Program-made: the position numbers and the translations under genes
Shown here: in pieces, positions 11,350 through 35,021 of the stretch
How the letters are laid out: every line of letters starts with the position of its first letter
Position numbering within the stretch: the first letter of the stretch is position 1
From: Desulfobacterales bacterium
Lineage (GTDB): Bacteria; Desulfobacterota; Desulfobacteria; Desulfobacterales; SURF-7
NCBI GenBank assembly: GCA_028277765.1
Contig: JANQFQ010000051.1
Location: 115,849 to 179,848, forward strand
Direction: 5' to 3'
DNA: 64,000 bases
The notes under the pieces: model-generated
Databases searched by the model: none
Seen by the model: the letters and a program-made list of their open reading frames with translations, nothing else
Told to the model about the DNA's origin: nothing

Positions 11350-11363
11350 ACAAAGGTGTAATT

Positions 11364-12080: not shown

Positions 12081-12096
12081 AAATTTTTCTTGGGCT

Positions 12097-17490: not shown

Positions 17491-17503
17491 TTATCTTTAT
17501 CAT

Positions 17504-17592
17504 CTGGTGCGTCGGGATGGACTTGAACCATCAGAGCTACTATAGCACCGGATTTACAGTCCGACCCGCTACCAGTTACGGTTTACCGACGC
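17504..17592 (-). tRNA. tRNA-Tyr (GTA), long variable arm
   Basis: Anticodon loop cuGUAaa, variable hairpin, T-loop TTCAAGT, CCA encoded. Confidence 0.75.
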
Positions 17593-17743
17593 ACAATACT
17601 TAAAAATCCAAAGAACGAAATCCGAACAAATCAGAAATTCAAATGTTCAAATGATCAAAACCCTCATACAAATTAAAAAACTTATAATTAAAAAAATAGC
17701 TGCTCTAAAATATTAAACCATAAAGTTTTGAATTTAATATTTT

Positions 17744-17796
17744 GGTCATTCGTATTTGTTTCGGATTTCGTGCTTCGGATTTCGAATTTTTTCTAT
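17744..17796. repeat. 48-bp repeat copy C (reverse orientation) of the AAATCCGAAGCACGAAATTCGAAATCCGAAAC...ATGACC family
   Basis: Reverse complement matches 19749-19795 and 36327-36372. Forms an inverted pair with the 19749 copy around a 16-tRNA block. Confidence 0.6.
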
Positions 17797-17863
17797 CATA
17801 ATCTAGTCCCCTTTCTAAGATAACTAAAGTTGAATATCCTGAACCATTATGTAAGCTGACGAT

Positions 17864-17937
17864 GGTGGCCCCTGTGAGAATCGAACTCACTTCATGAGAA
17901 TGAAAGTCTCATATCTTAACCAGTAGACGAAGGGGCC
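17864..17937 (-). tRNA. tRNA-Glu (TTC)
   Basis: Acceptor GGCCCCT, conserved CCTTCGTCTA, loop cuUUCau, CCA encoded. Confidence 0.75.
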
Positions 17938-18046
17938 ATACCAGTATTACTTAATTTAATCTCATATGTGCCGAAGATACATAAGCTAATAAGGACTTAA
18001 AATTGTCAGCATACCACAACTTTAGGCACTTAAGGCACTGTTTTTA

Positions 18047-18124
18047 TGGTAGGGGAGCCGGGATTCGAACCCGGAAATTACACTGGGCTTAAACCAGCAG
18101 CATGTGCCGTTCTGCTACTCCCCC
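18047..18124 (-). tRNA. Atypical tRNA, Leu-type anticodon TAA but class-I-like (7-nt variable loop, G13.A22 mismatch)
   Basis: Canonical T-arm CCGGG-TTCGAAT-CCCGG and acceptor. Best anticodon fold gives loop uuUAAgc. No long variable arm. Confidence 0.5.
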
Positions 18125-18135
18125 ATGCTTTTACC

Positions 18136-18212
18136 TGGAGAGCCTGGTGGGACTCGAACCCACATAAAACGATGTTGCAAACCGTCCCCTAACCAATTCG
18201 GGTCACAGGCTC
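18136..18212 (-). tRNA. tRNA-Cys (GCA)
   Basis: Loop uuGCAac, acceptor GAGCCUG/CAGGCUC, CCA encoded. Confidence 0.7.
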
Positions 18213-18291
18213 TGGTGCGGGCACCCGGAGTCGAACCGGGAAAACACATCGGGTTTGAGCCGACGGCATATGCCTATTCTGCCATGCCCGC
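18213..18291 (-). tRNA. Atypical tRNA, anticodon CAA (Leu-type) with short variable loop and 3-bp D-stem
   Basis: Acceptor GCGGGCA/UGCCCGC, loop cuCAAac, T-arm CCCGG-TTCGACT-CCGGG. Resembles the 18047 copy. Confidence 0.5.
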
Positions 18292-18292
18292 A

Positions 18293-18371
18293 TGGTGCCG
18301 GTGGTGGGAGTCGAACCCACAGATTTCACGGGATCTTAACCCGCAGCATATTCCAGTTCTGCTACACCGGC
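18293..18371 (-). tRNA. Atypical tRNA paralogous to 18047..18124 (anticodon loop uuaagau; AAG or shifted)
   Basis: Acceptor GCCGGUG/CACCGGC, D-arm GCAG-aacuggaauau-GCUGC, T-arm GUGGG-TTCGACT-CCCAC. Anticodon assignment uncertain. Confidence 0.45.
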
Positions 18372-18380
18372 TCTTTTTTA

Positions 18381-18457
18381 TGGCGCCCTGTACGGGATTT
18401 GAACCCGTGATACCAGATCGACAATCTAGCGTGATCGCCTGACTTCACTAACAGGGC
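18381..18457 (-). tRNA. tRNA-Asp (GTC)
   Basis: Loop uuGUCga, acceptor GCCCUGU/ACAGGGC, CCA encoded. Confidence 0.75.
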
Positions 18458-18467
18458 ATATTTCTCA

Positions 18468-18543
18468 TGGCAGGGGCGGAAGGATTCGAACCTTCAATTT
18501 ACGGCGTCAAAGGCCGCTGTGTTGCCAGTTTCACCACACCCCT
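18468..18543 (-). tRNA. tRNA-Gln (TTG)
   Basis: Loop cuUUGac, T-arm GAAGG-TTCGAAT-CCTTC, CCA encoded. Confidence 0.7.
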
Positions 18544-18656
18544 TTTTAAAAGCAGTTATAAGTTACAAGTGCCTTAAGTTAATGTATCGCTTCGCTCTGT
18601 CATCTTTAAACATACAAATTGTTAGAATTCATTCACTTAAGGCACTGCCTTTTACC

Positions 18657-18731
18657 TGGAGCGAGTAACCGGAATCGAACCGGTGTTTCAAGCTTGGAAG
18701 GCTTGCACTCTACCTGTTGAGTTATACTCGC
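18657..18731 (-). tRNA. tRNA-Gly (TCC)
   Basis: Loop cuUCCaa, acceptor GCGAGUA/UACUCGC. Confidence 0.75.
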
Positions 18732-18732
18732 T

Positions 18733-18806
18733 TGGAGCGAATGGCGGGAATTGAACCCGCGTTTCAACCATGGCAAGGTTGTGTTCTCCCCCTGAACTAC
18801 ATTCGC
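18733..18806 (-). tRNA. tRNA-Gly (GCC)
   Basis: Loop uuGCCau, acceptor GCGAAUG/CAUUCGC. Confidence 0.75.
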
Positions 18807-18807
18807 A

Positions 18808-18884
18808 TGGTGGAACGGATTGGAATTGAACCAATGACGCTTAGGGCTTCAACCTAACGCTCTACCAGCTTGAGCTACCGTTCC
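18808..18884 (-). tRNA. tRNA-Phe (GAA)
   Basis: Loop uuGAAgc, canonical D-arm AGCUCAAGCUGGUAGAGC. Confidence 0.8.
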
Positions 18885-18920
18885 ACAATCTTATATTTTT
18901 ACCATTGGCATAAGTTTCGT

Positions 18921-18955
18921 TTGAATAGTAAACTACACTATTCAACTCAGCTTTA
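18921..18955. promoter_or_regulatory. Palindrome TTGAATAGT-N7-ACTATTCAA followed by CTCAGCTTTAT, copy 1 of 2 (abuts the tRNA-Val 3' end)
   Basis: 9-bp perfect inverted repeat. The same ~35-bp sequence recurs at 33384-33419 directly in front of the rtcR start codon. Confidence 0.5.
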
Positions 18956-19032
18956 TGGTAGGACGAGCGGGATTCGAACCCGCATCCTTCTGCTTGTAAG
19001 GCAGATGCTCATCGCAATTGAGCTATCGTCCT
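18956..19032 (-). tRNA. tRNA-Val (TAC)
   Basis: Loop cuUACaa, T-arm GCGGG-TTCGAAT-CCCGC, CCA encoded. Confidence 0.75.
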
Positions 19033-19075
19033 GTGTTTTACTTTTATCTCCTTCATCATTGTATTACTCTAAAAA

Positions 19076-19181
19076 ATGGCCTGCCATACGTAGCTCGTTG
19101 CTATTTTGCCCTTAGCCCTCCTTCGCTAAAGCTATGGAGGGCACCATCCTTCTTCATCGCTCTGCTCTGAGCGAAGGATGG
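19076..19181. repeat. tRNA-array structured repeat (TASR) copy a: three-hairpin ~105-bp element abutting the tRNA 3' CCA
   Basis: Consensus ATGGCCAGCCAT...GCCCTCC-gtcgctaaagctat-GGAGGGC...CCATCCTTC-n-GAAGGATGG. Six copies at 19076, 20751, 20961, 21420, 21581 and 21822. Confidence 0.65.
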
Positions 19182-19258
19182 TGGAGGCACCGGTAGGATT
19201 TGAACCCACAACCAACTGCTTACAAGGCAGCTGCTCTTGTCCGTTGAGCTATGGTGCC
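19182..19258 (-). tRNA. tRNA-Thr (TGT)
   Basis: Loop cuUGUaa; CCA encoded and followed by a second CCA belonging to the repeat. Confidence 0.7.
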
Positions 19259-19297
19259 TTTCTTCTTTTTTATCTTTTACCCATCCAATTTTTCTTT

Positions 19298-19369
19298 TGG
19301 CACACCGGTAAGGAATCGAACCCTAGCCTACTGGTTTGGAGCCAGCCTGGTCACCATGACCTCCGGTGC
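19298..19369 (-). tRNA. tRNA-Trp-like (CCA) with aberrant D-arm (3-nt D-loop)
   Basis: Loop cuCCAaa, acceptor GCACCGG/CCGGUGU with G.U pairs, T-arm UAGGG-TTCGATT-CCUUA. D-arm collapses to GGUCA-ugg-UGACC. Confidence 0.5.
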
Positions 19370-19475
19370 GCATTTCATTACTTCTTTCCTGATGTTGTGC
19401 CTATAAAATGGCAGCGCTGAAAGCGCACCACAACTTAAGGCACTTGTAACTTATAACTTAAGCCACTTTATTATC

Positions 19476-19550
19476 TGGTCGGAGAGGAGGGACTTGAACC
19501 CCCAACTACGTGGCCCCAAACCACGCCGTCTCCCAATTGACTCACTCTCC
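19476..19550 (-). tRNA. tRNA-Pro (TGG)
   Basis: Starts CGGAGAG, loop uuUGGgg, CCA encoded. Confidence 0.7.
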
Positions 19551-19589
19551 GATTTTTCTATGAACATAAAATATGCTCCTGTTTATACA

Positions 19590-19667
19590 TGGGGTGTCGG
19601 AGGGGATTCGAACCCCCAACTACCTGAGCCACAATCAGGCGCTCTCCCCGTTGAGTCTACCGACACC
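19590..19667 (-). tRNA. tRNA-His (GTG) with genomically encoded G-1
   Basis: Loop uuGUGgc; extra 5' G opposite discriminator C; CCA encoded. Confidence 0.8.
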
Positions 19668-19748
19668 ATAAAAATGACAATACGCTTTCTTTTTTAGTTT
19701 CTAAGAAGTCACTCCTTTGCGTTAAAATATCTTGCTACCATTCTTGTT

Positions 19749-19795
19749 TAAAATCCGAAGCACGAAATTCGAAATCCGAAACAATATCAAATGAC
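19749..19795. repeat. 48-bp repeat copy A (forward) AAATCCGAAGCACGAAATTCGAAATCCGAAACAATATCAAATGACC
   Basis: Near-identical to 36327-36372 and reverse-complementary to 17744-17796. Confidence 0.6.
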
Positions 19796-19962
19796 CGAAA
19801 TACAAATTTCCGAAACACAAAAACATTTTGTTTTATAAAATCCAATGTTTTGAAAGTTTTAAAATTCGATATTCGGATTTAAAATTATCGTCATTAACTG
19901 TTCCCATAAATTACCTGCTAAATACCTTTCCTTATAAACGAGACTTTTTACAGTTTTGGTTT

Positions 19963-20038
19963 TGGCTGTGAGGGTCGGATTCGAACCGACGATTTCCTGA
20001 TTAACAGTCAGGCTCCTTGCCAGCTAGGATACCTCACA
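19963..20038 (-). tRNA. tRNA-Asn (GTT)
   Basis: Loop cuGUUaa, D-arm UCCU-agcuggca-AGGA, CCA encoded. Confidence 0.7.
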
Positions 20039-20122
20039 GCATGTTATCCTTTACAGCATTGCCCCAGCCCGCTGCCGCGATGTGTTCATCGCGGCAGCTT
20101 GATACTTTGAGCAATATACGGC

Positions 20123-20629
20123 TTAATAGATGCCTGCTTTTACAAGCAGATCATAAACGCCGATACTGTCGAGATGCTTCTTAATGAACTCCATAACTGT
20201 CGGCTGATAAGGCACAAAGTTTCTCTTATTAAAAAACATCTTTGCTTCCCTTAGGGTCCTGTCACCTTTTTTGTTATTGCAATCCACGCAGGAAGTTACA
20301 GTGTTTTCAAAAGTATTCTTACCTCCTCGTGACTGCGGAAAAACATGATCAATGTTCAGATTTTTTTTGGTTCCGCAGTAAACACATTTGAATACATCCC
20401 GAACCATCACGTTTTTTTTGGACCATGCCACAGCCTTTCGATAAATCTGTCTGACCAGATAAATCAGACGGAGAATCAACGGCACAACAATCTCTTCTGT
20501 TGCGGTTCTTACAATCATTTCAGAATACTTCTCCACGGTCACCTTTCCCTTGGCAACCAGCTTTAAAGCCCGTCGCACGGAAATGCTGTTAATGTAAGAA
20601 TAGTCCTGGTTTAAAAGTATTACTCTCAT
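20123..20629 (-). CDS. HNH endonuclease embedded in the tRNA array
   Basis: CVYCGTKKNLNIDHVFPQSRGG...N..VTSCVDCNNKKG HNH/zinc-finger motif; 168 aa. Confidence 0.75.
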   Translation of the reverse strand: MRVILLNQDYSYINSISVRRALKLVAKGKVTVEKYSEMIVRTATEEIVVPLILRLIYLVRQIYRKAVAWSKKNVMVRDVFKCVYCGTKKNLNIDHVFPQSRGGKNTFENTVTSCVDCNNKKGDRTLREAKMFFNKRNFVPYQPTVMEFIKKHLDSIGVYDLLVKAGIY

Positions 20630-20642
20630 GATCCACCGCCTT

Positions 20643-20717
20643 TGGCGCGCCTGGCAGGAATCGAACCCGCATATCAGAGCTTAGAAGGCTCCTGCTATTC
20701 CGTTTAGCTACAGGCGC
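20643..20717 (-). tRNA. tRNA-Arg (TCT)
   Basis: Loop cuUCUaa, acceptor GCGCCUG/CAGGCGC, CCA encoded. Confidence 0.75.
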
Positions 20718-20750
20718 TTGCCCATTATAACCTGCTTCTCCTTTCATTCT

Positions 20751-20855
20751 TAATGGTTTGCCCTCCGTAGCTCGATGTCTTTGATCCTTTTGCCCTCCGC
20801 CGCTAAAGCTATGGAGGGCACCATCCTTCTTCATCGCTCTGCTCTGAGCGAAGGA
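20751..20855. repeat. TASR repeat copy b
   Basis: Near-identical to copy a (..gccctccgccgctaaagctatggagggcaccatccttcttcatcgctctgctctgagcgaaggatgg). Confidence 0.65.
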
Positions 20856-20931
20856 TGGTGGAGGCGACAGGAATCGAACCCGCACGATACTGGATGCAAA
20901 CCAGCTGCTCTCCCTATTGAGCTACGCCCCC
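20856..20931 (-). tRNA. tRNA-Ala (TGC)
   Basis: Loop uuUGCau, and G3.U70 Ala identity pair present in acceptor GGGGGCG/CGCCUCC. Confidence 0.75.
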
Positions 20932-20960
20932 ATTTTCATTTCACTTAATCCTATCAATTT

Positions 20961-21037
20961 TAATGGCCTGCCATCCGTAGCTCGTTGCTATTGAGCCCTT
21001 AGCCCTCCTTCTTCGTCGCTTTACTCCGAGCGAAGGA
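20961..21037. repeat. TASR repeat copy c (middle hairpin deleted)
   Basis: atggcctgccatccgtagctcgttgc...ccctccttcttcgtcgctttactccgagcgaaggatgg. Confidence 0.6.
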
Positions 21038-21115
21038 TGGTGAGTGTGGAGGGACTCGAACCCTCAACTTACAGATTAAAAGCCTGTTACGCTGATCCAG
21101 TTGCGTCACACACTC
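21038..21115 (-). tRNA. tRNA-Lys (TTT)
   Basis: Loop cuUUUaa, acceptor GAGUGUG/CACACUC, CCA encoded. Confidence 0.7.
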
Positions 21116-21148
21116 ACATGTTAAACATCCTTTCCTCTATTTGTTTTC

Positions 21149-21224
21149 TGGTAGCGGCGGCCGGATTTGAACCGGCGCTGCACTGGATATGAACCAGTTG
21201 CTCTGCCTATTGAGCTACGCCGCA
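21149..21224 (-). tRNA. tRNA-Met/Ile2 type (CAT) with U1.U72 terminal mismatch
   Basis: Loop uuCAUau, T-arm GCCGG-TTCAAAT-CCGGC. The 1-72 mismatch is initiator-like but the anticodon stem lacks the three G-C pairs. Confidence 0.6.
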
Positions 21225-21231
21225 ACAAAAT

Positions 21232-21306
21232 TGGTAGCGATACCTGGAATCGAACCAGGGTTGCTCGATTATCGGTCGAGTGTTCTGCCTGCTGAACTAT
21301 ATCGCC
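21232..21306 (-). tRNA. tRNA-Ile (GAT), unusual C33
   Basis: Loop ccGAUaa, acceptor GGCGAUA/UAUCGCU, CCA encoded. Confidence 0.65.
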
Positions 21307-21319
21307 CCGATTTATATTC

Positions 21320-21398
21320 TGGCACCCCCGGGAAGATTCGAACTCCCGCAAACCCGGCTTCGAAGGCCGGCGCTCTGGATCCGCTGAGCTACGGGGGC
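21320..21398 (-). tRNA. tRNA-Arg (TCG)
   Basis: Loop cuUCGaa, acceptor GCCCCCG/CGGGGGU, CCA encoded. Confidence 0.6.
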
Positions 21399-21419
21399 AT
21401 ATGTCATCAAAACTTTCTT

Positions 21420-21493
21420 TAATTTCTTTGCCCTCCGTTGCTAAAGCTATGGAGGGCACCATCCTTCTCTGTCGCGCTGCTCCGAGCGAAGGA
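21420..21493. repeat. TASR repeat copy d (5' part missing)
   Basis: ..gccctccgttgctaaagctatggagggcaccatccttctctgtcgcgctgctccgagcgaaggatgg. Confidence 0.6.
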
Positions 21494-21569
21494 TGGTGGA
21501 CCCGGAAGGCATCGAACCTCCATAATACCGGTTATGAGCCGGCTGCTCTGCCGATTAAGCTACGGGTCC
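21494..21569 (-). tRNA. tRNA-Met (CAT), elongator-type
   Basis: Loop cuCAUaa, acceptor GGACCCG/CGGGUCC fully paired, CCA encoded. Confidence 0.7.
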
Positions 21570-21580
21570 AATTGCTTCTC

Positions 21581-21690
21581 ACGCCATATGGCCAGCCATC
21601 CGTAGCTCGTTGCCATTGAGCCCTTAGCCCTCCGCCGTTAAAGCTATGGAGGGCACCATCCTTCTCCGTCGTATTGCTCCGAGCGAAGGA
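21581..21690. repeat. TASR repeat copy e
   Basis: atggccagccatccgtagctcgttgccattgagcccttagccctccgccgttaaagctatggagggcaccatccttctccgtcgtattgctccgagcgaaggatgg. Confidence 0.65.
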
Positions 21691-21773
21691 TGGTGAGAGG
21701 GGGATTCGAACCCCCAAGGCTGTTACGCCCCACAGTTTAGCAGTCTGCTGCCATACCGTTCGGCCATCTCACC
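21691..21773 (-). tRNA. tRNA-Ser (GCT), class II, CCA not encoded
   Basis: Acceptor GGUGAGA/UCUCACC, loop cuGCUaa, long variable arm, T-arm GGGGG-TTCGAAT-CCCCC. Confidence 0.65.
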
Positions 21774-21821
21774 ATGTTTTCAATTTCGGTCTATGTATTA
21801 CCGTTTGCATTACCTCCTTTT

Positions 21822-21926
21822 TTATGGCCAGCCATCCGTAGCTCGGTGCATTTGATCCTTTTGCCCTCCGTCGCTAAAGCTATGGACGGCGCCATCCTTC
21901 TTCGTCGACTTACTCCGAGCGAAGGA
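21822..21926. repeat. TASR repeat copy f
   Basis: ttatggccagccatccgtagctcggtgc...gccctccgtcgctaaagctatggacggcgccatccttcttcgtcgacttactccgagcgaaggatgg. Confidence 0.65.
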
Positions 21927-22019
21927 TGGCGGAGGGACAGAGACTCGAACTCTGACGCGCCTTTTCAGGCGTTACTGGTTTTCAAGACCAGGCCCCGCCC
22001 CGCTGGGGTCAACCCCTCC
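21927..22019 (-). tRNA. tRNA-Ser (TGA), class II, 93 nt with irregular D-arm
   Basis: Anticodon arm CUGGU-cuUGAaa-ACCAG and T-arm CAGAG-TTCGAGT-CUCUG closely match enterobacterial tRNA-Ser(UGA). Long variable hairpin. TGA anticodon, not TCA, so not tRNA-Sec. Confidence 0.65.
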
Positions 22020-22894: not shown

Positions 22895-23413
22895 TCATAA
22901 TGAAATTTTTAGGCCAAACTTTTCTTTTATTGTCAGCAACGCTTCTGCATTCCCTTTTGCATCATCTACAGGATAATGCGTATGTTTGGTTTTCCTTAGA
23001 TGTTTAAAATTCTTAAACATATCTTTTACAATACCTTTATATAAAGATCCTAAGTTCGTTGAACTAAATCCAAAGGGATTCTTTCCTGTAAAATGATGAA
23101 AATACCAGTTAATAAATTGCCAATCAAAACCATTGTTATCAGAGATAAACATTGGCTGGCTTTTAGAGTGCGTTTTAATCCAGCTAGCAAAATTCATCAT
23201 GACCTCTTTTGGTTCATCAAACGCCAGTACTTCCTCCCGGCTAAAGCCACTCACTGCCAGTGCTTCAGGAATCCAGTTTTCTGAAATCGGCCGCATTTGC
23301 CCGTAAAAAGTTTTTTCAAGGCCCGGTTTTACGATAACCGCCCCAAAGCTGATCATCGAATAATCGTCAGGTATGGGACCATCAGATTCTATATCTACCA
23401 TTATATAACTCAT
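22895..23413 (-). CDS. DEDDh-family 3'-5' exonuclease (DnaQ/RNase T-like), single domain
   Basis: Exo I MVDIESDG, Exo II FISDNNGFDW, Exo III HxxxxD as HTHYPVDDA; 172 aa. Confidence 0.75.
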   Translation of the reverse strand: MSYIMVDIESDGPIPDDYSMISFGAVIVKPGLEKTFYGQMRPISENWIPEALAVSGFSREEVLAFDEPKEVMMNFASWIKTHSKSQPMFISDNNGFDWQFINWYFHHFTGKNPFGFSSTNLGSLYKGIVKDMFKNFKHLRKTKHTHYPVDDAKGNAEALLTIKEKFGLKISL

Positions 23414-27163: not shown

Positions 27164-27217
27164 GGGGCGAGAGGTAATTTAACTTATCGAGTTTTTTTTA
27201 AGGAACCTCTTGTGCCC
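27164..27217 (-). ncRNA. Hairpin module C (GGGC-ACA-AGAGG-U .. A-CCUCU-C-GCCC with A-rich loop)
   Basis: Same architecture as modules at 27345 and 28306, with compensatory base changes (GGGAG/CUCCU versus AGAGG/CCUCU). Confidence 0.55.
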
Positions 27218-27227
27218 TTCAATATGT

Positions 27228-27340
27228 CGGGGAAGGCAGGAATCGAACCTGCGACCGCCGGGTCCAAGATTTCAGGAACCCCCTGTGCCATAAAGCGGAG
27301 AGTAAAAAATCCCGGTGCTCTACCGCTGAGCTACTTCCCC
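27228..27340 (-). ncRNA. tRNA-like RNA (Y-RNA / YrlA-like tRNA mimic): intact acceptor, D-arm and T-arm, anticodon loop replaced by a 48-nt insertion
   Basis: GGGGAAG-UA-GCUC-AGCGGUAGA-GCAC-C-CCGGG-[48 nt incl. GGCACAGGGGGUUCC]-CCCGG-CGGUC-GCAGG-UUCGAUU-CCUGC-CUUCCCC. No CCA encoded. Sits in the rtcB operon flanked by hairpin modules. Confidence 0.6.
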
Positions 27341-27344
27341 ATAT

Positions 27345-27390
27345 GGGCGAGGAGTATTTTTCAAGGGTTTTTTAAGGAACTCCCTGTGCC
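27345..27390 (-). ncRNA. Hairpin module A (GGGC-ACA-GGGAG-U .. A-CUCCU-C-GCCC)
   Basis: Immediately 5' of the tRNA-like element in RNA sense; near-identical copy at 28306-28352. Confidence 0.55.
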
Positions 27391-27424: not shown

Positions 27425-27802
27425 TTAATATTTATTTGTTTTTAAAAATTTTTCTGCCTTTTTGACAAACAAATTACATCTTTTGGTTTTTTTCGCCACA
27501 TTAATAAATTTAGTGTATTTCTCTTCTGCTTTATTAAACCGCCCTGCTGTTTCATGGGATAAAGCTTCCCAAAAAATAGCCTCGTAAAGCATGGGAGATA
27601 ATTTCCATGCTTTTCGACTTGCGAAAATTGCCCTATCAATATCCCCTTCATTAAACCGGTTAAAATATTGAATCGTAGCATCAGCCACAGCAAGCAAAAC
27701 AAGCGGATCATCCTGATCCTTTTTATACTTTTCTAAAATTTCATCCATTTGCGCTTTTATCACTTCTCTGTTTTCGTCTACAGGATACACACCGAATTGC
27801 AC
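27425..27802 (-). CDS. Hypothetical protein (125 aa)
   Basis: ORF only; weak. Confidence 0.3.
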
Positions 27803-28184
27803 TGGAATGAAAATTAAATTTCAAGGTTTCATACCAGTATTTCTGCTCTTTGGCAGAAAAAACAAATAATTGGTTGCACTGAACACATTCCCTTTCAATA
27901 TCAACATAAAAATATTTTGGTGTATGGCACATATGGCAGAACATCTGCTCTCGAATATTGCCAGCCACCGCATTTTTAGGAAGTTTCGGTTTATAATCCG
28001 GATCATAACCCCATGTTTTATTTTTTTTGCCATTGAAACCAATGGTTGTTTTTTCAATCATTGGAATCTCACCAAATAATGGATGAGAAACAAATCGTCT
28101 ATTGTCAGCCAAAGATTTCTTATACTTTCTTTTCTTTAACTTCTTCTTTTCTTTCTTTGAATATGCTGATCGTCGAACACGCAT
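27741..28184 (-). CDS. Basic zinc-ribbon protein (CHMCH..CVQC..CVSC), 147 aa
   Basis: Lys/Arg-rich N-terminus, three Cys pairs; ORF only. Confidence 0.4.
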
Positions 28185-28305: not shown

Positions 28306-28352
28306 GGGCGAGGAGTAATTTTCAAGGTTTTTTAAAGGAACTCCCTGTGCCC
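28306..28352 (-). ncRNA. Hairpin module A' (third copy)
   Basis: gggcgaggagtaattttcaaggttttttaaaggaactccctgtgccc on the + strand, about 125 bp upstream (RNA sense) of the rtcB start region. Confidence 0.55.
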
Positions 28353-28477: not shown

Positions 28478-29683
28478 TCAACCTTTTACCACCCCTAACG
28501 GTCTCAGTTTAACAAGCGGCTTAATCAGATCCAGTTCTGCTTCAATGACCGCGTCAATATCTTTATACGCCTGTGGTGCTTCGCTGAGATCGACCATCCC
28601 TTTTGTTTTACCTCTTTTTACTTTGCTCCACCGGTCATACACGATCCCTTCCATGGCCTTGTCGCATTCTTCAGGCGTTAATGCCCGTGTTGCCTGCATC
28701 CTTCCCATGACACGGCCTGCGCCGTGAGAACAGGACATAAAGGATTCAATGTTTCCGAGCCCTTTCACAATATATGACGATGTCCCCATGGAACCTGGAA
28801 TAATCCCGGTTTCATCCTGTTTGGCTGATGTAGCGCCTTTTCTGTGGACCCAGACATTTTTGCCAAAATGATTTTCCAGAGCAGCATAATTATGGTGTAT
28901 ATTCACCTGGTTTCCAAATTCAGCATCCTTATAAACTGATGTAAAAGCGTCTATAAATCTGTCCATAATTCGCTGCCTGTTCTCTCTTGCATATGCAAGG
29001 GCGAAATTCATATCTTTGATATAATCCTGGCCCTCCTGTGTGTTTACCGGTAAAAACGCTAGGTCCTTGTTCGGGATATTCGAATGGAACTTCCGGTTTA
29101 ACTCAAGGGCACGGTCATTATAAAACCTTGCAATCATATTGCCCAGGTGTCTTGACCCGGAATGGATCATCAGCCACACATGGTTATCATCACCTGCCTG
29201 GATTTCAATAAAATGATTGCCGCCACCCAGGGTTCCCAGATTTCTGCAGGCAAGATCCCTTACATGGGCAGAAAACCATTTTCTGTCACTATATGAATCA
29301 ATATCGTCTTCAAACCCTTCCCATGTCTGTTCTTTTTTATGTGCCTTGCCTTCGCCGCATGGAACCGTTTTCTTAATCATGTTGACAACTTCCCTGAGCT
29401 GTTCTCTGGTGGTATTTTCAACTTCGATACTTGTCCTCACAGCCCCCATCCCACAGCCGATATCCACACCAACAGCATTTGGAATCACCGTATTTGTGCA
29501 GGCAATCACACCGCCAATCGGCATCCCATACCCCTGATGACAGTCCGGCATCAGCGCCACATGGCGAAACACAGCCGGGTGCTGTGCTAAATCCGCAGCC
29601 TGATCCATTGCCCCATCTTCAATATCTTTACACCATGATTTGACCGGTACTCTAAAATTATCTTCCTGTTTTATCCATTCCAT
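28478..29683 (-). CDS. rtcB: RNA-splicing ligase RtcB (3'-phosphate/5'-OH RNA ligase)
   Basis: GTLGGGNHFIEIQ, HSGSRHLG and other RtcB blocks; 401 aa. Confidence 0.9.
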   Translation of the reverse strand: MEWIKQEDNFRVPVKSWCKDIEDGAMDQAADLAQHPAVFRHVALMPDCHQGYGMPIGGVIACTNTVIPNAVGVDIGCGMGAVRTSIEVENTTREQLREVVNMIKKTVPCGEGKAHKKEQTWEGFEDDIDSYSDRKWFSAHVRDLACRNLGTLGGGNHFIEIQAGDDNHVWLMIHSGSRHLGNMIARFYNDRALELNRKFHSNIPNKDLAFLPVNTQEGQDYIKDMNFALAYARENRQRIMDRFIDAFTSVYKDAEFGNQVNIHHNYAALENHFGKNVWVHRKGATSAKQDETGIIPGSMGTSSYIVKGLGNIESFMSCSHGAGRVMGRMQATRALTPEECDKAMEGIVYDRWSKVKRGKTKGMVDLSEAPQAYKDIDAVIEAELDLIKPLVKLRPLGVVKG

Positions 29684-29698: not shown

Positions 29699-30127
29699 TC
29701 ACTGCCATTGTTTTAACGCGAAATATGGTCCTAATCCAATGCTCTGCTCATGGGTAAAGGCCATAGTCCATTCCATATCTTCAGGAAAAACATAATAATC
29801 ACCAAAAGCTGATAGATCATGAAGCGTTTTAGAACAGCATTTGTATCCCAGGTTATCGTCTTTCTCAGAGAGTACATAATATTCTTTTGATGATACATTC
29901 TTATATAATTCAATAGCTCTTGCCCCAAGCTTGTGAATGGCGAAGTCGAAACTGAATGTATGCCAGTTATAATCGCCATAAATCCACTTTCCTTTTTTTT
30001 CCTTGATGATCTTTGAAAATGTTTCTCGCCATTTTTGCTGTAATTTCCAAGTTTCTTTTTTTGTAAGCTGGAAATATTGTATTGAATGTTCTTCAAAAAA
30101 TGTTTCTAGCATTTTCTTTAATTTCAA
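29699..30127 (-). CDS. Hypothetical protein (142 aa) inserted between rtcA and rtcB
   Basis: ORF with upstream spacing consistent with the operon. No recognisable domain. Confidence 0.45.
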   Translation of the reverse strand: MKLKKMLETFFEEHSIQYFQLTKKETWKLQQKWRETFSKIIKEKKGKWIYGDYNWHTFSFDFAIHKLGARAIELYKNVSSKEYYVLSEKDDNLGYKCCSKTLHDLSAFGDYYVFPEDMEWTMAFTHEQSIGLGPYFALKQWQ

Positions 30128-30338: not shown

Positions 30339-31358
30339 TTAGGCACTTTTTATGTCAATCTCCCACTCATTCTGCCCATATTCTTGCATATCAATGTCAA
30401 CATCCAGAAACTCTTTAATAATATCAATATTCGTCCTTGTATGTTTTGTCGGTGAAAGCGTTCTGAATTTACCTCCACCGGCCATGGCCATTGGAATCAG
30501 TAACTGATCCGCAAGATATCTGCCCACTGGCACATCATATGCCAGATATTCCCGTACAGATTTTGCTGTCCGGTTTGCCACCTTTTCCGCTGAAACGCCT
30601 CTTTCACCAAATCCCGTGAAAACCTCTGTAATATATTCACTTTCAATCTCTATTGTCAGAATATTCCCCGGGCCCTGAGAGTTTTCAACTTCAACCGTTC
30701 TTAATTCTTCCCTGTTCCATTCCAGCTTTTCCTTGATCACTTTAATCTCCCTGTGCGCGATCTTCACCGGCAGGTTTGCCACAACCGCGCTGGCGATTTT
30801 CCTGACAGTTTTTCCGCGATCCAGAAGATCAATACTATTAAGCTTTGTAGGATTAATCGTCACCTTAAATCTGCCTCCGCCTGCTGGATAAAAGCCCGGC
30901 TTTTCAAGCACAGCATCAACCCTTGGCCCCATCCGCTTAATCACCGGCAGAAAAGCTTTTTCAAGAAAGTCAAAAGGCGGAGCATATGGATTATGCGTTC
31001 CCCCTTCCAGAACAATCTCTGAAGGACCATCTGCAACTATTAGCGCCGGTAAAATAGTTTGAAAAACCAGGGTGCAGCTTCCGGCAGAGCCGATGGCAAA
31101 ATGATAATTGCCCGGTTTGATGGTTTCAGGCTCAAATGTAAACGCCTGTGAACCGATCCGGTTTCCCTGGATAGCAGCCTTGCCGATCTCTGCCGCGGCA
31201 TTTACCGCAGTAAGATGCTGACGCATCAGTCCCGGCTTTTTTCGCCCAGCCCGGATATTGCTTATTGTAAACGGCTTTCCTGTTACCAACGAAAGCGCAA
31301 GGGACGTTCTTAGAATCTGACCGCCGCCTTCACCATATGAACCGTCAATTAAAATCAT
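30339..31358 (-). CDS. rtcA: RNA 3'-terminal phosphate cyclase RtcA
   Basis: MILIDGSYGEGGGQILRTSLALSLVTGKPF..RQHLTAV N-terminal signature; 339 aa. Confidence 0.9.
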   Translation of the reverse strand: MILIDGSYGEGGGQILRTSLALSLVTGKPFTISNIRAGRKKPGLMRQHLTAVNAAAEIGKAAIQGNRIGSQAFTFEPETIKPGNYHFAIGSAGSCTLVFQTILPALIVADGPSEIVLEGGTHNPYAPPFDFLEKAFLPVIKRMGPRVDAVLEKPGFYPAGGGRFKVTINPTKLNSIDLLDRGKTVRKIASAVVANLPVKIAHREIKVIKEKLEWNREELRTVEVENSQGPGNILTIEIESEYITEVFTGFGERGVSAEKVANRTAKSVREYLAYDVPVGRYLADQLLIPMAMAGGGKFRTLSPTKHTRTNIDIIKEFLDVDIDMQEYGQNEWEIDIKSA

Positions 31359-31447: not shown

Positions 31448-32554
31448 TTATAATAAATTAACAACCCTGTCAGCAAGTCCCTTTTCACCCAGCACAACAT
31501 TGAGCTTTGAATTTCCTGCAACTTTCTCAAGAACATCCAGCTCTCGCAGGCGCATAAGTGTTGGGTTGTTGTCCAGGAGTTTAGCTGTATTGGCCTGGCT
31601 ACGCATAGCAGCTGTCTCTTCTCTACGCGTAATCAGGTTGGCATCTGCTGCTTTCTGGGCCTCGATGACTTTATTCATGAGGTCCTTCATATCTCCTGGC
31701 AGAATCACGTCCCTGATACCAAGTGCCAGCACATCAATACCGAATTCAGCTACTCGCTCCTTTATCGTATCTTCCAGATCTTTTGCCACTCTCTCTTTGT
31801 CGCTCAGGAGTGTATCCAGATCAAATGTTCCAATAACAGCCCGTAACGCCAGCTGTGCTTCACGGTATACAGCGTTTTTGCTGTCATCCACAACAGACAC
31901 GGACTTAAGCGCGTCCACAACCTTGTAAGTAATCACGGCATTCATTCGCAGTGTCACCTTGTCAGAGGTCATGATCTCCTGGCCGGATACATCCATTACC
32001 GTCTCACGCATATCAACATGATAAAATTTTACTTTTCCCATATTTCTCCAGAACATGTACTGGCCTGGTCCGAAAGTATCTACATGTACACCGTCTTTAA
32101 AGTAAACACCTGCAAAACCCTGCTCAACATTAGAAATGTTCAGTGCATGTTCTACGCCACTGGATTTCGCGATGATGTTAAGGTCCTTGTGATTAAATCG
32201 CACATCTCTCGCATCCACAACTTCAACTTTTACATTGCGAAATTTTGTCCAAAGTGCGTATAAACCTGGATCCAGAACCATTTCAAACCGTCCGTCAATC
32301 CAGACCAGTCCCCGCTGGTGATCCTTAAGGTCAAGGACTTCCGCGTGACCTTTCAAAGCGCCTGACTTTACAATCATGTCAAGGTCTTCATGCATAAACC
32401 AGGCATCCCGCTGGGAAACAACGGCTACCTTGACATTGCATAAAGGATCGACGAACCAGTGACGCCCTTTTCCTAAAAGGCCTTTGAATTCACGATCCCG
32501 AAAGTATAATCCTTTTTCATAAGAACGAATTTTTTTAGTTTTGATTAAGAACAT
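31448..32554 (-). CDS. SPFH/band-7 (stomatin/flotillin-like) domain protein
   Basis: PHB-domain region plus C-terminal coiled-coil (..EAQKAADANLITRREETAAMRSQANTAKLL..); 368 aa. Confidence 0.75.
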   Translation of the reverse strand: MFLIKTKKIRSYEKGLYFRDREFKGLLGKGRHWFVDPLCNVKVAVVSQRDAWFMHEDLDMIVKSGALKGHAEVLDLKDHQRGLVWIDGRFEMVLDPGLYALWTKFRNVKVEVVDARDVRFNHKDLNIIAKSSGVEHALNISNVEQGFAGVYFKDGVHVDTFGPGQYMFWRNMGKVKFYHVDMRETVMDVSGQEIMTSDKVTLRMNAVITYKVVDALKSVSVVDDSKNAVYREAQLALRAVIGTFDLDTLLSDKERVAKDLEDTIKERVAEFGIDVLALGIRDVILPGDMKDLMNKVIEAQKAADANLITRREETAAMRSQANTAKLLDNNPTLMRLRELDVLEKVAGNSKLNVVLGEKGLADRVVNLL

Positions 32555-32837
32555 TTTCCTCTCCTTTCCCCTGAATTACTTTTCGGGACACTGTTATTAA
32601 TACGCCGGGTGAAATAAACCGTTGGGAAGTAAGCTGAAACCCTTCCACACTTAACATGCGGAGCACTATTTGAGCTTCCTGGTCCTTCAGGCTGTCTGGC
32701 ATTTTATCTAAACAATTGCAAAACCCTTCTAGCCTGGGTTTAGTAAACAGAATTGATATCATGCCTCTAACCTGAAATCCCATGTGAAGCGGTATCCACG
32801 CGCTGCATGGCATGTTGCCAAGTGCTGTCTTTTCCAA
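32535..32837 (-). CDS. Doubtful small ORF upstream of the SPFH gene (TTG start; could be NfeD-like or non-coding)
   Basis: ORF-track start is TTG; first ATG is at codon 9. No SD. Position is analogous to NfeD partners of SPFH genes. Confidence 0.2.
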   Translation of the reverse strand: MEKTALGNMPCSAWIPLHMGFQVRGMISILFTKPRLEGFCNCLDKMPDSLKDQEAQIVLRMLSVEGFQLTSQRFISPGVLITVSRKVIQGKGEENVLNQN

Positions 32838-33011
32838 ACATCAGCTTTTGCCGCCGCCTGATGACGTCCATCATACTGACTGGATATGTTTTCAGGCCAT
32901 CCGGTCCCGGCTGCGTGTCCGGATAAAACCGGCTGGATAACCGCTCACTCCCCTCGGGCCTTTTTAGGAGATCGTTTTCAGCGATCTAAGAGGGTTTTCA
33001 TCCCTTTGGCT

Positions 33012-33085
33012 TGGAGCAGGAATCGAACCTGCAACGCCCGTGTTATAAGCACGGTGCTCTACCAATTGAGCTATCCTCTTCTGAT
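33012..33085 (-). ncRNA. tRNA-like leader RNA: canonical D-arm, anticodon arm (loop cuUAUaa) and T-arm, but the 3' acceptor strand is interrupted by a ~22-nt insertion
   Basis: AAGAGGA-UA-GCUC-AAUUGGUAGA-GCAC-CGUGC-uuauaac-ACGGG-CGUU-GCAGG-UUCGAUU-CCUGC-UCC[aagccaaagggaugaaaaccc]UCUU. Lies between the sigma54 promoter and the first operon ORF. Confidence 0.55.
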
Positions 33086-33201
33086 ATCTGACCATCATTG
33101 ATCCCATGTTCGGTACACACAGCATTGACCGCATTGCTGAATGAAGTGCGCCGCTGGCCCGGCGGATATCAGTTTGTTAAAGAACAATTGCCGTGTAATA
33201 G

Positions 33202-33216
33202 AGCAATGGATGTGCC
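33202..33216 (-). promoter_or_regulatory. Sigma54 (RpoN) -24/-12 promoter, TGGCAC-N5-TTGC, reading into the rtc operon
   Basis: + strand gcaatggatgtgcca; reverse complement is TGGCACATCCATTGC, a perfect GG-N10-GC consensus. Divergent from rtcR, as in E. coli rtcBA. Confidence 0.75.
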
Positions 33217-33383
33217 ATCCATGACAAAAAGTGTGCGATTGCTATTTAATGGTTTGATTTTATATAAAATATTTTTTTTGACATGCGGATTTGTCTCTTG
33301 ACCTGGAAAAAGATTTTGGCTATAATTTTATAAAATATTATAAATTTATAGAAAATATTATATCAAAATGGTATAGGTTTCAT

Positions 33384-33419
33384 TTGAATAACAAACGACA
33401 CTATTCAACTCAGCTTTAT
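33384..33419 (+). promoter_or_regulatory. Palindrome TTGAATAAC-N7-ACTATTCAA plus CTCAGCTTTAT abutting the rtcR ATG (copy 2)
   Basis: Same 35-bp sequence as 18921-18955 (one arm mismatch). Confidence 0.5.
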
Positions 33420-35021
33420 ATGAAAAAAAAAGTTGTCATAGGGCTTCTTGGCCCGACTTTAGACATAGGAAAACGCTCAAAACGATGGGAACGATGGCGT
33501 CCCACGGTTGCCTTGTGCCAGCATGAGGATTTACTGGTAAGCCGTTTTGATTTGTTGTATCAAAAAAAGTTCAAGTCTCTCCAGGACCGTGTGGTCAAGG
33601 ATATTAAGCACATTTCACCAGAAACAGAAGTTATCTCACATGAAATTGACCTCCATGATCCTTGGGATTTTGAGGAGGTTTACGCAGCCCTACATGACTT
33701 CACAAAAGCCTATACATTTAATCAGGACAATGAAGACTACCTGGTACACATAACTACCGGGACACACGTTGCTCAGATATGCCTCTACTTGCTTACTGAA
33801 TCAAACTATCTTCCTGCCAGACTGGTCCAGACAAGTCCTTCCTCAGGAAAAAACAAGGACAATGATGTTAGCGGCGAATACCGGATCATCGATCTTGACC
33901 TGTCCAAGTACGACAGGATCGCCATGCGGTTCAGGCAGGAAATGGATGATGATATTACCTTTTTAAAATCCGGCATCGAGACACGCAACAAAGCGTTTAA
34001 TGTGTTGATTGAACGGATTGAACAAGTTGCCATGAACTCGGTTGATCCGGTTTTGCTCACAGGGCCCACCGGTGCCGGGAAATCAAATCTTGCGAGACGT
34101 ATTTATGAGCTTAAAAAAACACGGCGCCAGCTTAAAGGTGCTTTCATAGAGGTGAATTGCGCCACTCTCCGTGGCGATGCTGCCATGTCAGCCTTGTTTG
34201 GACATAAAAAAGGCGCGTTTACCGGGGCAACCCAGGACAGAAATGGACTTTTGCGGGCAGCAGACAAGGGTATGCTTTTCCTGGATGAAGTTGGCGAACT
34301 CGGTCTTGATGAGCAATCCATGCTTCTTCGCGCTATTGAAGAAAAGCGGTTTCTTCCAGTAGGTTCGGACAATGAGACGGAATCAGACTTTCAGCTCATT
34401 TGCGGTACAAACCGCGATCTTCATATTGACGTGACGAACGGCCGTTTCAGGGAAGACCTTCTTTCTCGCATAAATCTATGGACTTTTCATATGCCGGGCC
34501 TTACGCAAAGACCGGAAGATATTGAACCGAACCTGAGATACGAACTCGATCGGTTTGCGGAGAGGAACAATACACATGTTACCTTTAATAAAGAGGCTAG
34601 AAAAAAATTCCTTACTTTTGCGACATCGCCTGTTGCATTATGGTCAGCCAATTTCAGGGATCTGAACGGTGCCATAACCCGCATGGCAACCCTAGCGCCG
34701 GGAGGCCGGATCACTAAAGAGGTTGTGCAGGAAGAGATATCTAGGTTGAAAGTCTTGTGGCATACAGCTGAAACAGATAGCCGTCATACACTTTTAAATG
34801 AGGTGATCGGTTCTGAAAAAGTAAAGGAGCTTGATCTCTTTGAGAAAAATCAGCTACTTGAGGTTTTGCTAGTATGTAGGGAATCAAAAAACATATCAGA
34901 TGCCGGCCGCAAACTATTTGCCGTGTCACGAGAGAACAAAAAGAAGACCAATGATTCAGACCGCCTTCGGAAATACCTGTCGCGTTATAATATAAGTTGG
35001 GAAGATCTTACGAAACCGTAA
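33420..35021 (+). CDS. rtcR: Sigma54-dependent transcriptional regulator RtcR (CARF-like N-domain + AAA+ + HTH)
   Basis: 533 aa, colinear with E. coli RtcR along the whole length: WRPT..CQ, HITTGTHVAQIC, LLTGPTGAGKS, GAFTGA, FREDL..RINLWTF, DADRLRKYL. Start set at MKKKVVIGLLG rather than the longer ORF. Confidence 0.92.
   Translation: MKKKVVIGLLGPTLDIGKRSKRWERWRPTVALCQHEDLLVSRFDLLYQKKFKSLQDRVVKDIKHISPETEVISHEIDLHDPWDFEEVYAALHDFTKAYTFNQDNEDYLVHITTGTHVAQICLYLLTESNYLPARLVQTSPSSGKNKDNDVSGEYRIIDLDLSKYDRIAMRFRQEMDDDITFLKSGIETRNKAFNVLIERIEQVAMNSVDPVLLTGPTGAGKSNLARRIYELKKTRRQLKGAFIEVNCATLRGDAAMSALFGHKKGAFTGATQDRNGLLRAADKGMLFLDEVGELGLDEQSMLLRAIEEKRFLPVGSDNETESDFQLICGTNRDLHIDVTNGRFREDLLSRINLWTFHMPGLTQRPEDIEPNLRYELDRFAERNNTHVTFNKEARKKFLTFATSPVALWSANFRDLNGAITRMATLAPGGRITKEVVQEEISRLKVLWHTAETDSRHTLLNEVIGSEKVKELDLFEKNQLLEVLLVCRESKNISDAGRKLFAVSRENKKKTNDSDRLRKYLSRYNISWEDLTKP

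Follow-up and report, generated by a model that had tools for sequence, protein, structure and literature searches.

The window analysed here, a 64,000-nucleotide stretch of the genome of a Desulfobacterales bacterium (contig JANQFQ010000051.1 of assembly GCA_028277765.1), contains an RNA repair operon of the rtc type together with its activator gene rtcR, and the subject of this study is the leader RNA encoded between the two. On the minus strand, divergent from rtcR, the order is a promoter, a non-coding stretch of about 640 nucleotides (nt), and then Band_7, rtcA, DUF4275, rtcB and zf_Tbcl. Within the non-coding stretch lies an element with the fold of a tRNA. It was found that this element is a genuine, conserved tRNA mimic, all arms of which are backed by covariation, that it is the middle domain of a three-domain structured leader of about 640 nt, and that the leader RNA tracks the Band-7 gene and not rtcR or rtcB. 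For comparison, the proteins of the window operon were mapped onto each of 78 RtcR loci from reference genomes, and metagenomes were scanned with the window Band-7 protein, which gave 80 loci; those in group A are 80-88% identical to the window protein and those in group B 62-67%. The window's own leader is denoted WIN in the comparisons. The features of the locus are as follows.

33420..35021, plus strand: rtcR, sigma54 enhancer-binding activator with a CARF-like N-terminal domain (Pfam RtcR, 1.4e-84; Sigma54_activat, 1e-49)
33203..33217, minus strand: sigma54 -24/-12 promoter TGGCACatccaTTGC (TGGCACATCCATTGC)
33081..33172, minus strand: 5' domain of the leader, with helices H1 and H2 of RNAalifold
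32969..33080, minus strand: middle domain of the leader, made up of the tRNA-like domain and one or two hairpins
33009..33080, minus strand: tRNA-like domain of the type called b7a-tRNA, for band-7-associated tRNA, with AAGA, GGA stub, D-arm, anticodon arm, variable region, T-arm and UCC
32988..33012, minus strand: 21-nt insert (33012..32992) with the hairpin GGG-AUGAAAA-CCC, followed by UCUU (32991..32988), as read from the sequence
32969..32987, minus strand: second small hairpin, AGAUCG-CUGAAAA-CGAUCU, found in all group A and some group B leaders
32618..32959, minus strand: 3' domain of the leader, about 340 nt (helices H8-H16)
31448..32554, minus strand: SPFH/Band-7 (stomatin-like, 'slipin') protein of 368 amino acids (Pfam Band_7, 2.9e-32)
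30339..31358, minus strand: rtcA, RNA 3'-phosphate cyclase (Pfam RTC, 5.2e-81)
29699..30127, minus strand: DUF4275 gene (Pfam DUF4275, 4.1e-8)
28478..29683, minus strand: rtcB, RNA ligase (Pfam RtcB, 4.6e-113)
27741..28184, minus strand: gene for a treble-clef zinc-finger protein (zf_Tbcl), 3' of rtcB

A preliminary description of this locus, made from the letters of the sequence, had placed a sigma54 promoter directly ahead of a tRNA-like leader, and this was borne out. TGGCAC-N5-TTGC has its sole match in the 64 kb here, against 0.13 expected by chance, and lies about 200 nt from the divergent rtcR. GG at -24, GC at -12, the spacing between them and an adjoining gene for an enhancer-binding protein were all found. 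The bases TGGCA...TTGCT are identical throughout 14 aligned related leaders, and proteobacterial Band-7 loci have TGGCAC-N5-T(C/T)GC in the equivalent position. The product of rtcR scores 817 bits against the NCBIfam equivalog RNA_repair_RtcR (cut-off 650), and relatives of it occur in the Olavius symbiont Delta 1 (84% identity) and in a metagenome-assembled Desulfobacterales genome (83%). From the promoter, transcription is predicted to start near 33192, and the tRNA-like cloverleaf begins about 112 nt after this predicted start. Upstream of the sigma54 promoter, in AT-rich intergenic DNA on the operon strand, there is a sigma70-like promoter, TTGATA-18-TATAAT (11/12 matches; 33337..33366, minus strand), which could drive basal transcription of the leader independently of RtcR. 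A matching sigma70-like site on the plus strand (33298..33326) probably serves rtcR.

The tRNA fold reported in the preliminary description was likewise recovered, with D-arm, anticodon arm and T-arm all present. The Rfam tRNA family RF00005 matches 33076..33013 (minus strand) with 52.3 bits, over model positions 5-66 of 71 only (E-value 2.4e-8 for the whole window and 3.9e-10 locally). The D-arm is GCUC/GAGC (33071..33056), the anticodon arm CCGUG-CUUAUAA-CACGG (33054..33038), and the T-arm GCAGG-UUCGAUU-CCUGC (33032..33016). The element scores 73.5 bits with R1, a covariance model built in this analysis for leader tRNA-likes, and is not among the 27 tRNAs that ARAGORN called in the window. 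When 23 leader elements from at least 8 lineages were aligned on the cloverleaf, 95% of cells were paired, and double-change cells numbered 108 versus 29 in shuffles. Pairing in the anticodon stem reaches 100% in this alignment, and 5/5 pairs of this stem change on both sides.

In the acceptor stem, directly after the T stem, UCC (33015..33013) pairs with GGA (33076..33074); in the 42 leaders for which a consensus was folded (see below), two G:C pairs of this inner stub of 3 base pairs (bp) are invariant, and the third is U:A in 27 and A:U in 12. Next comes the insert, the hairpin of which is conserved and covarying (helix H7), and then UCUU, which is complementary to AAGA (33080..33077). These outer pairs form 4/4 in WIN, L084 and L088, 3/4 in six close relatives (with one position changed from A-U to U-A), and 0-1/4 in five others, and they compete with an A:U extension of the insert hairpin. 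When a contiguous 7-bp acceptor was sought, as in a canonical tRNA, the outer four pairs failed in WIN, L001, L002, L035, L042 and L059_2. A comparable split can be drawn in Accumulibacter (CAC...GUG around a hairpin), and contiguous acceptors of 5-7 bp are found in Burkholderia, Snodgrassella, Alteromonadaceae and some Vibrionaceae copies. Because the outer pairing is limited to the window's subclade and acceptors are contiguous elsewhere, the interruption is a lineage-level variant; at the level of the family, the feature is the elbow of a tRNA with a short stub, and a hairpin after it. The split acceptor of the preliminary description is therefore right as to the insert (21 nt) and the UCUU, but only the inner 3 bp have comparative support. 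The insert and UCUU (33012..32988) fall just outside the coordinates that it gave, 33012..33216. RNAalifold on the clade alignment also offers the 5' acceptor strand another partner: GUUCUU, an invariant segment close to the 5' end, would pair with GAGGAU, with no covariation and with three G-U pairs, and the GUUCUU segment does not occur in group B. Since there is no contiguous 7-bp acceptor and no CCA, and since the anticodon is not conserved, a mature tRNA that could be aminoacylated cannot form, as had been stated.

The anticodon loop is the least constrained part of the mimic. It is CUUAUAA in the window, and 12 different 7-nt loops occur among 14 close relatives, with anticodons that include UAU, GAG, UUU, GAU, UGG, AAC, AAU and GGU, in a tRNA-like region that is otherwise 75-91% identical to that of the window. 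A GNRA or UUCG tetraloop takes the place of the loop in RtcR-linked loci of Burkholderia and Accumulibacter and in one Enterovibrio copy. Because of this variation and these tetraloops a decoding function is excluded, and so is, as an explanation that would hold in general, any role tied to one anticodon-loop sequence. What is left is a non-decoding, non-chargeable tRNA mimic, which consists of the elbow formed by D-arm and T-arm and an acceptor stub of 3 bp.

The loop also bears on the mechanism that the preliminary description had put forward, in which the element is a decoy or cis sensor. In such a mechanism, anticodon nucleases would cut the loop, the 5' fragment with its cyclic phosphate would bind RtcR's CARF domain as feed-forward, and RtcB would re-ligate the break. 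It is known that the CARF domain of RtcR binds 5' halves of tRNAs that carry a terminal 2',3'-cyclic phosphate, and feedback of RtcA/RtcB on this signal has been proposed (PMC7790460). The loop is nearly always 7 nt long in the window's clade and group B, U33 is mostly kept in the window's clade, and the upstream sigma70-like promoter could supply a basal transcript for cleavage. However, the anticodon is unconstrained and tetraloops are found even where RtcR is linked, the RNA accompanies Band-7 and not rtcR/rtcB and is present in Band-7 loci without rtc genes, and the 5' fragment would include the 5' domain of about 110 nt unless this were separately processed. Since the element lies downstream of an RtcR-dependent promoter, it would moreover be scarce before induction. 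As a general mechanism the decoy or sensor is not supported, and we consider it quite unlikely for the window; a secondary feed-forward role is conceivable in the window's clade, where the 7-nt loop is kept.

The tRNA mimic is embedded in a much larger fold. Group A loci have the layout of the window (rtcR, sigma54 promoter, leader, Band-7, rtcA, rtcB), and their whole leader of about 660 nt can be aligned, with long invariant blocks. Group B loci have the same leader blocks before Band-7, with rtcR and rtcAB mostly absent within 3 kb and with unrelated genes downstream. Identity of the leader to that of the window is 71-81%, as compared with 49-63% at third codon positions of the adjoining Band-7 gene. 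The RNAalifold consensus on 42 leaders has 130 pairs in 19 helices, most of which form in WIN; 87.9% of cells are paired versus 35-41% in slid controls, and there are 731 double-change cells versus 269 in shuffles.

The 5' domain is closed by a helix of CUGAUAUC (33172..33165) with GAUAUCAG (33088..33081), which covaries (U..A in WIN, C..G in relatives). It encloses the motifs CCGCCGGGCCAGCGGCGCAC and GUGUGUACCGAACAUGG, both of them conserved, and a long hairpin formed by 33153..33135 and 33133..33111. On the 42 leaders H1 and H2 are 87-91% paired, and 11/18 pairs of H2 change on both sides; homologous CCGG-UGCRC...GYGCA-UGCCGCC motifs are present in proteobacterial leaders. In the middle domain, the second hairpin that follows the tRNA-like domain shows compensatory changes, for example GGCCGC/GCGGCC in L099. 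What closes the 3' domain is a long-range helix between 32959..32941 and 32637..32618. H9, which makes up most of this helix, is 92.5% paired, with 10/12 pairs that change on both sides and 11/12 that form in WIN. The invariant blocks of the 3' domain are GCCAUGCAGCGCGUGGAUACCGC and GCUCAAA..GCUCCGCA..GUGUGG. Single-nucleotide indels in the leader alignment indicate that the leader is non-coding. An open reading frame of 100 amino acids within it (32837..32535) was judged spurious, as it has no Pfam match and its frame is broken by 1-nt indels in relatives.

When the 78 RtcR loci were searched with nhmmer profiles, one for each of the three leader domains, only L001 and L002 gave matches. Proteobacterial leaders are too diverged for profiles of sequence only, and recognition of the equivalent architecture there needed a separate alignment and fold. 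In such an alignment of 23 betaproteobacterial and Pseudomonas leaders the domain order is the same; an extra acceptor-plus-T-arm module precedes the cloverleaf, and closure of the 3' domain comes shortly before the ribosome-binding site. The leaders of the window, Burkholderia, Accumulibacter, Vibrionaceae, Enterobacterales and E. coli match no Rfam family other than tRNA, by which a known large RNA or riboswitch was ruled out.

To which gene the leader belongs became clear from the 78 RtcR loci. Where Band-7 is the first gene of the operon, a leader T-arm is present in 36/37 loci, and a full cloverleaf of at least 62 bits with R1 in 33/37. Where rtcB or rtcA comes first, with a promoter gap of 130-410 nt, a leader T-arm is present in 0/16. 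One exception among the rtcB-first loci is that of a sphingomonad (L015), which has a complete tRNA-Pro-like gene. The T-arm of these leaders is encoded by the operon strand, at about 300-450 nt upstream of the start of rtcR, and the element of the window lies 455 nt upstream of Band_7 on the same strand. Band-7-first loci are found in Desulfobacterales, Burkholderia, Accumulibacter, Zoogloea, a planctomycete, Alteromonadaceae, Vibrionaceae, Snodgrassella and Enterobacterales. The genomic coupling to Band-7 is thus strict, and the conservation of the tRNA fold among orthologous loci, for which the preliminary description had suggested a comparison, is evident.

Both the covariation and this fixed placement bear on the possibility that the element is without function, either as a decayed tRNA gene or as the tRNA half of the attachment site of a mobile element. 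Activity of mobile elements nearby is plausible, given the array of 27 tRNA genes with an HNH endonuclease gene and a second odd tRNA-like gene in the window. However, with respect to promoter and Band-7 the element is placed alike in Desulfobacterota, Planctomycetota, Beta- and Gammaproteobacteria, and compensatory changes preserve all of its arms. Its identity to tRNAs of the window does not exceed 81%, and no integrase is adjacent. The preliminary description had itself named an attachment-site half as a finding that would speak against a functional leader; on these grounds a remnant or pseudogene was ruled out, and we regard it as extremely improbable.

The elements vary in form outside the window's clade. 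Tandem modules, two in number (three in L064), are present in many proteobacterial and planctomycete leaders (L017-L056 of Burkholderia, L035, L042, L043, L059, L064). In Burkholderia the first module is reduced to an acceptor stem and a T-arm (GGGCGC...CCGGGUUCGAAUCCCGG.GCGCCC-ACC), somewhat like the tRNA-like domain of tmRNA, and in L042 ACCA follows each of the two modules. In sphingomonads, complete tRNA-Pro(UGG)-like genes with a 7-bp acceptor and an encoded CCA (L014 6669..6743, L016 6665..6739, L015 878..950, all on the minus strand) are placed after a sigma54 promoter adjoining rtcR. An open reading frame for a TROVE/Rsr-like protein, one or two copies of the Y RNA-like YrlA (RF02553) and rtcB follow the tRNA-like gene in L014 and L016, and rtcB follows it directly in L015. 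Because both are present in L014 and L016, a leader tRNA-like and YrlA can coexist in one operon.

As to function, we see about an even chance that the leader RNA is the cognate partner of a Band-7 oligomer, in a particle that acts as scaffold or cofactor for repair by RtcB and RtcA. RtcR would activate the sigma54 promoter and the three-domain leader would be transcribed ahead of Band-7, rtcA and rtcB. The leader RNA, either whole or processed at the tRNA-like junctions, would then associate with the Band-7 oligomer, and the tRNA-shaped elbow would provide a handle for tRNA-recognising proteins, by which tRNA is recruited or mimicked. The resulting particle would assist RtcB/RtcA-dependent repair of RNA (tRNA), as the Y RNA with Ro60 would in the Salmonella operon. 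The model of such a particle takes Ro60 and YrlA, from the sister type of operon, as its analogue (PMC4201824; 10.1101/312249). The window Band-7 protein has no transmembrane segment (hydropathy over 19 residues is at most 1.39) and is predicted to be soluble; its N-terminal 140 amino acids are basic, with an isoelectric point of 9.4. The solved structures nearest to its SPFH part are ring or cage oligomers of stomatin (3bk6, 9wmj); solved stomatin relatives form 16-mer and larger rings, and HflK relatives also form large rings. From this setting we infer that the leader is co-transcribed with the operon, that it may be processed, and that it binds Band-7 and takes part in repair.

Several observations weigh against this reading. 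The leaders of Enterobacterales and E. coli are reduced to little beyond the T-arm, and the sole Pseudomonas locus (L021) has no T-arm at all, although the flanking leader motifs are kept, so that a complete cloverleaf is dispensable in some lineages. The literature found contains no experimental support for accumulation or processing of the leader RNA or for its binding to Band-7. Finally, without exception the RNA is in cis and adjoins the Band-7 coding sequence on its upstream side, a placement that would fit a purely cis-regulatory leader equally well.

In that case the leader would be a purely cis-acting 5' untranslated region with no function in trans, either a processing signal cut by RNase P or RNase Z/E, in the manner of the mascRNA of MALAT1 or of tRNA punctuation, or a switch that binds a protein or a tRNA enzyme and controls stability or translation of the Band-7-rtcA-rtcB mRNA. 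Its 3' domain ends 60-100 nt before the ribosome-binding site, always 5' of Band-7, and no convincing intrinsic terminator lies between leader and Band-7. In group B the leader directly follows a tRNA array, which RNase P and Z must process, and the YrlA of M. smegmatis, with a 7-bp acceptor, is cut by RNase P (PMC4201824). However, an acceptor of 7 bp is needed for that cleavage (PMC4201824) and the stub of 3 bp would be poor for RNase P, the closing helix of the 3' domain does not reach the ribosome-binding site, and about 130 conserved pairs over some 600 nt together with many invariant single-stranded blocks exceed what a processing site needs. A role confined to cis appears to us rather unlikely, and a partnership of the leader RNA with Band-7 remains the reading that we prefer.

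RNAs of this kind have been anticipated. The abstract of a study by Burroughs and Aravind in 2016 is said to pair 'SPFH/Band-7 modules' with 'a novel tRNA-like molecule'. In some bacteria, RtcB is encoded beside a Band-7 protein and a predicted non-coding RNA, as stated in the Discussion of a later article (Wang et al., 2018, bioRxiv 10.1101/312249, citing Burroughs and Aravind, 2016). According to the same Discussion, the b7a-tRNA occasionally adjoins Rsr instead, was without experimental validation as of 2018, and has been proposed to be functionally redundant with YrlA (10.1101/312249). Full-text literature searches on b7a-tRNA and on Band-7/SPFH with RtcB returned only this article and a survey of SPFH proteins in P. 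aeruginosa from 2026. The element of the window lies directly upstream of Band-7, has D-, anticodon and T-arms and belongs to an RtcB operon, and so, as far as the b7a-tRNA is described there, it is of the kind predicted in 2016, for which Rfam has no family. Shared with that description are a tRNA-resembling RNA beside a gene for Band-7/SPFH and RtcB, the proposed part as cognate RNA of a repair scaffold protein, and at times a neighbourhood with Rsr, as in the sphingomonad loci L014 and L016. The window element differs from the description of 2018 in a contiguous acceptor of only 3 bp, in the hairpin-bearing insert and in being a domain of a covarying leader of about 640 nt; tandem copies and reduced forms, seen here in other lineages, are a further difference.

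The second known relative is YrlA. The RtcR-controlled rsr-yrlBA-rtcBA operon of Salmonella encodes this tRNA mimic, which is bound to Ro60, and its topology is permuted, with a Ro-binding stem, a T arm, a closed acceptor-like stem-loop and a D arm (Chen et al., 2014, PMC4201824). The statement in the preliminary description that no rtc leader of this kind was described thus has to be withdrawn, in view of both YrlA (PMC4201824) and the b7a-tRNA predicted in 2016, as cited in 10.1101/312249. YrlA and the window element have in common the elbow of D- and T-arm, a repair operon under RtcR and sigma54, a scaffold partner, ring-shaped in the case of YrlA, and, in most species, the lack of an end that can be aminoacylated. 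YrlA has the Ro60-binding motif GNCGAAN0-1G, rsr as a neighbour and an incomplete anticodon arm, whereas the window element has the normal tRNA order of D, anticodon and T, a full anticodon arm and no rsr. RF02553 gave no match at E<=10 in 32400..33450, and the same library finds YrlA in L014 and L016. The TROVE/Ro60 domain was not found in Pfam scans of open reading frames over roughly 22.9-39.7 kb of the window. Without a match to RF02553, with the wrong topology and without rsr in the scanned stretch, identity with YrlA was ruled out.

Other comparisons are looser. The tRNA-like domain of tmRNA, the mascRNA of MALAT1 and the 3' tRNA-like structures of viruses are tRNA-shaped domains in longer RNAs. 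They resemble the window element as embedded tRNA shapes that are bound or processed by tRNA proteins and do not decode, but have a full acceptor that is processed and/or charged, whereas leaders of the window's clade have a 3-bp stub and no encoded CCA. GOLLD (RF01998) and ROOL (RF03087) are large 'ornate' bacterial RNAs that often lie near tRNA genes or arrays, and their biochemical function is not known. They share with the leader a covarying structure of several hundred nt and the association with tRNA genes; the leader differs from them in matching neither family at the gathering thresholds of Rfam, with nothing but tRNA matched at E<=10, in being the 5' leader of a specific protein gene and in its integral tRNA-like fold. 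In the vault particle, the shoulder domain of MVP is SPFH-like, and TEP1 has a TROVE domain and binds vault RNA. The likeness here is a cage former of SPFH type with a small structured RNA, the bacterial operons using either TROVE (Rsr) with Y RNA or SPFH with tRNA-like RNA. This comparison is an analogy only, since no RNA homology was found and the bacterial Band-7 is known here from its sequence.

The leader is also repeatedly linked to tRNA genes. In the window, the array of 27 tRNA genes (17408..22019, minus strand) is found 10 kb downstream and shares its strand with the rtc operon, and those of its genes that were inspected encode CCA. A gene for an RNase T-like 3'-5' exonuclease (22895..23413) precedes the array, and the HNH endonuclease gene (20123..20629) lies inside it. 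In L001 a tRNA array directly follows rtcB, and arrays beside rtc/Band-7 modules are also seen in loci of Acidobacteriota (L004, L006, L063, L074). In group B, leader and Band-7 stand at the 3' end of a tRNA array with the order ...Ser-Arg-His, a gap, and Trp-Thr-Arg(x3-4)-Cys. An array with conserved order of its genes occurs directly upstream of the Band-7 leader in many metagenomic loci and in one IMG/VR contig (L159). The gap, a tRNA-free stretch of about 650 nt (about 1160..1810) from tRNA-His to tRNA-Trp, is present in L104, L107, L112, L119, L125, L142, L150 and L159; in L142 it is bounded by tRNA-Arg and His instead. Among viral contigs there are three Band-7 relatives, one of them with the same tRNA array, and no clear sign of phage origin was seen. 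That this linkage recurs is suggestive of a 'replace and repair' island, in which both would be combined for the tRNA pool.

The module extends to model organisms. The leader and the start of the Band-7 gene of an Enterobacter locus have matches in 1632/5426 complete E. coli genomes (about 30%). In the representative from which the details were taken (L162, NZ_CP027766.1, 4800..8216), the islet lies between yjbD and lysC. A sigma54-type promoter, CTGGCACGCTTCTCGC (5014..5029), is followed by a leader of about 300 nt that is unannotated in RefSeq and has its T-arm at 5142..5158, and then by genes for a 'slipin family protein' and a nucleotidyltransferase-domain protein and by an opposing zeta-toxin gene. 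The rtc genes (rtcR, rtcB) were not found in the 10.6-kb region examined around this islet. A related arrangement is seen in Desulfogranum japonicum (L008), where rtcR adjoins rtcB-rtcA without a leader tRNA-like. A separate unit (10244..12106, minus strand), in which Band-7 comes with a stretch similar to that from promoter to tRNA-like in the window, is found there about 3.3 kb past the other end of rtcR. One RtcR may serve two promoters in L008, as the E. coli islet would also need. In P. aeruginosa PA14 a Band-7 gene is within the rtc locus.

Some further features of the window lie at the far end of the rtc operon. The second odd tRNA-like gene (27228..27340, minus strand) matches the Rfam tRNA family over its full length with 60.3 bits and has a perfect 7-bp acceptor, a D-arm and a T-arm, but no CCA, and ARAGORN makes no call for it. 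An insertion of 44 nt at the anticodon position gives it a loop of about 51 nt overall. It is the sequence in the window nearest to the leader element (81%). Neither this gene nor the GGCACAGGGRGTTCC repeat had a match in any fetched locus, and both are specific to the window genome. The motif GGCACAGGGRGTTCCT occurs four times on the minus strand within 1.2 kb (27201..27216, 27274..27289, 27375..27390 and 28336..28351), with 0.07 expected, and an A-rich run follows those copies of which the flanks were read. One copy falls within the 44-nt insertion just described, and there are copies upstream of the odd tRNA-like gene itself, of the zinc-finger gene and of an open reading frame of 620 amino acids. 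The motif resembles a promoter (near a sigma54 -24 element) or a small mobile repeat, and none of the relatives fetched has it. The DUF4275 gene is peculiar to the window genome, as rtcA abuts rtcB in the collinear operons of L001 and group A, and a relative of zf_Tbcl lies near rtcB in Comamonas (L047).

Repair operons with RtcB and RtcA are widespread, and their cofactors are poorly understood. The counterpart in Salmonella encodes Ro60 and YrlA, and broken tRNAs turn RtcR on. The mimic of the Band-7 operon is conserved with covariation, is a domain of a larger folded RNA, and travels with an SPFH protein. The large covarying leader with its modular variants, and the findings that it is linked to tRNA arrays and occurs in many E. 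coli genomes, appear to go beyond the accessible literature. It is possible, though somewhat short of an even chance in our judgement, that a hitherto undescribed multi-domain RNA of about 600 nt, with the tRNA mimic as its most recognisable domain, is an obligate partner of SPFH/Band-7 proteins from Desulfobacterota to Proteobacteria, in a ribonucleoprotein that resembles the vault or Ro/Y particles and guards or repairs the tRNA pool. The islet of E. coli is a tractable model for the module of Band-7 and leader, and since this module is present in E. coli and Band-7 in PA14, a role of the RNA and the SPFH protein in RNA repair can be tested in standard organisms.

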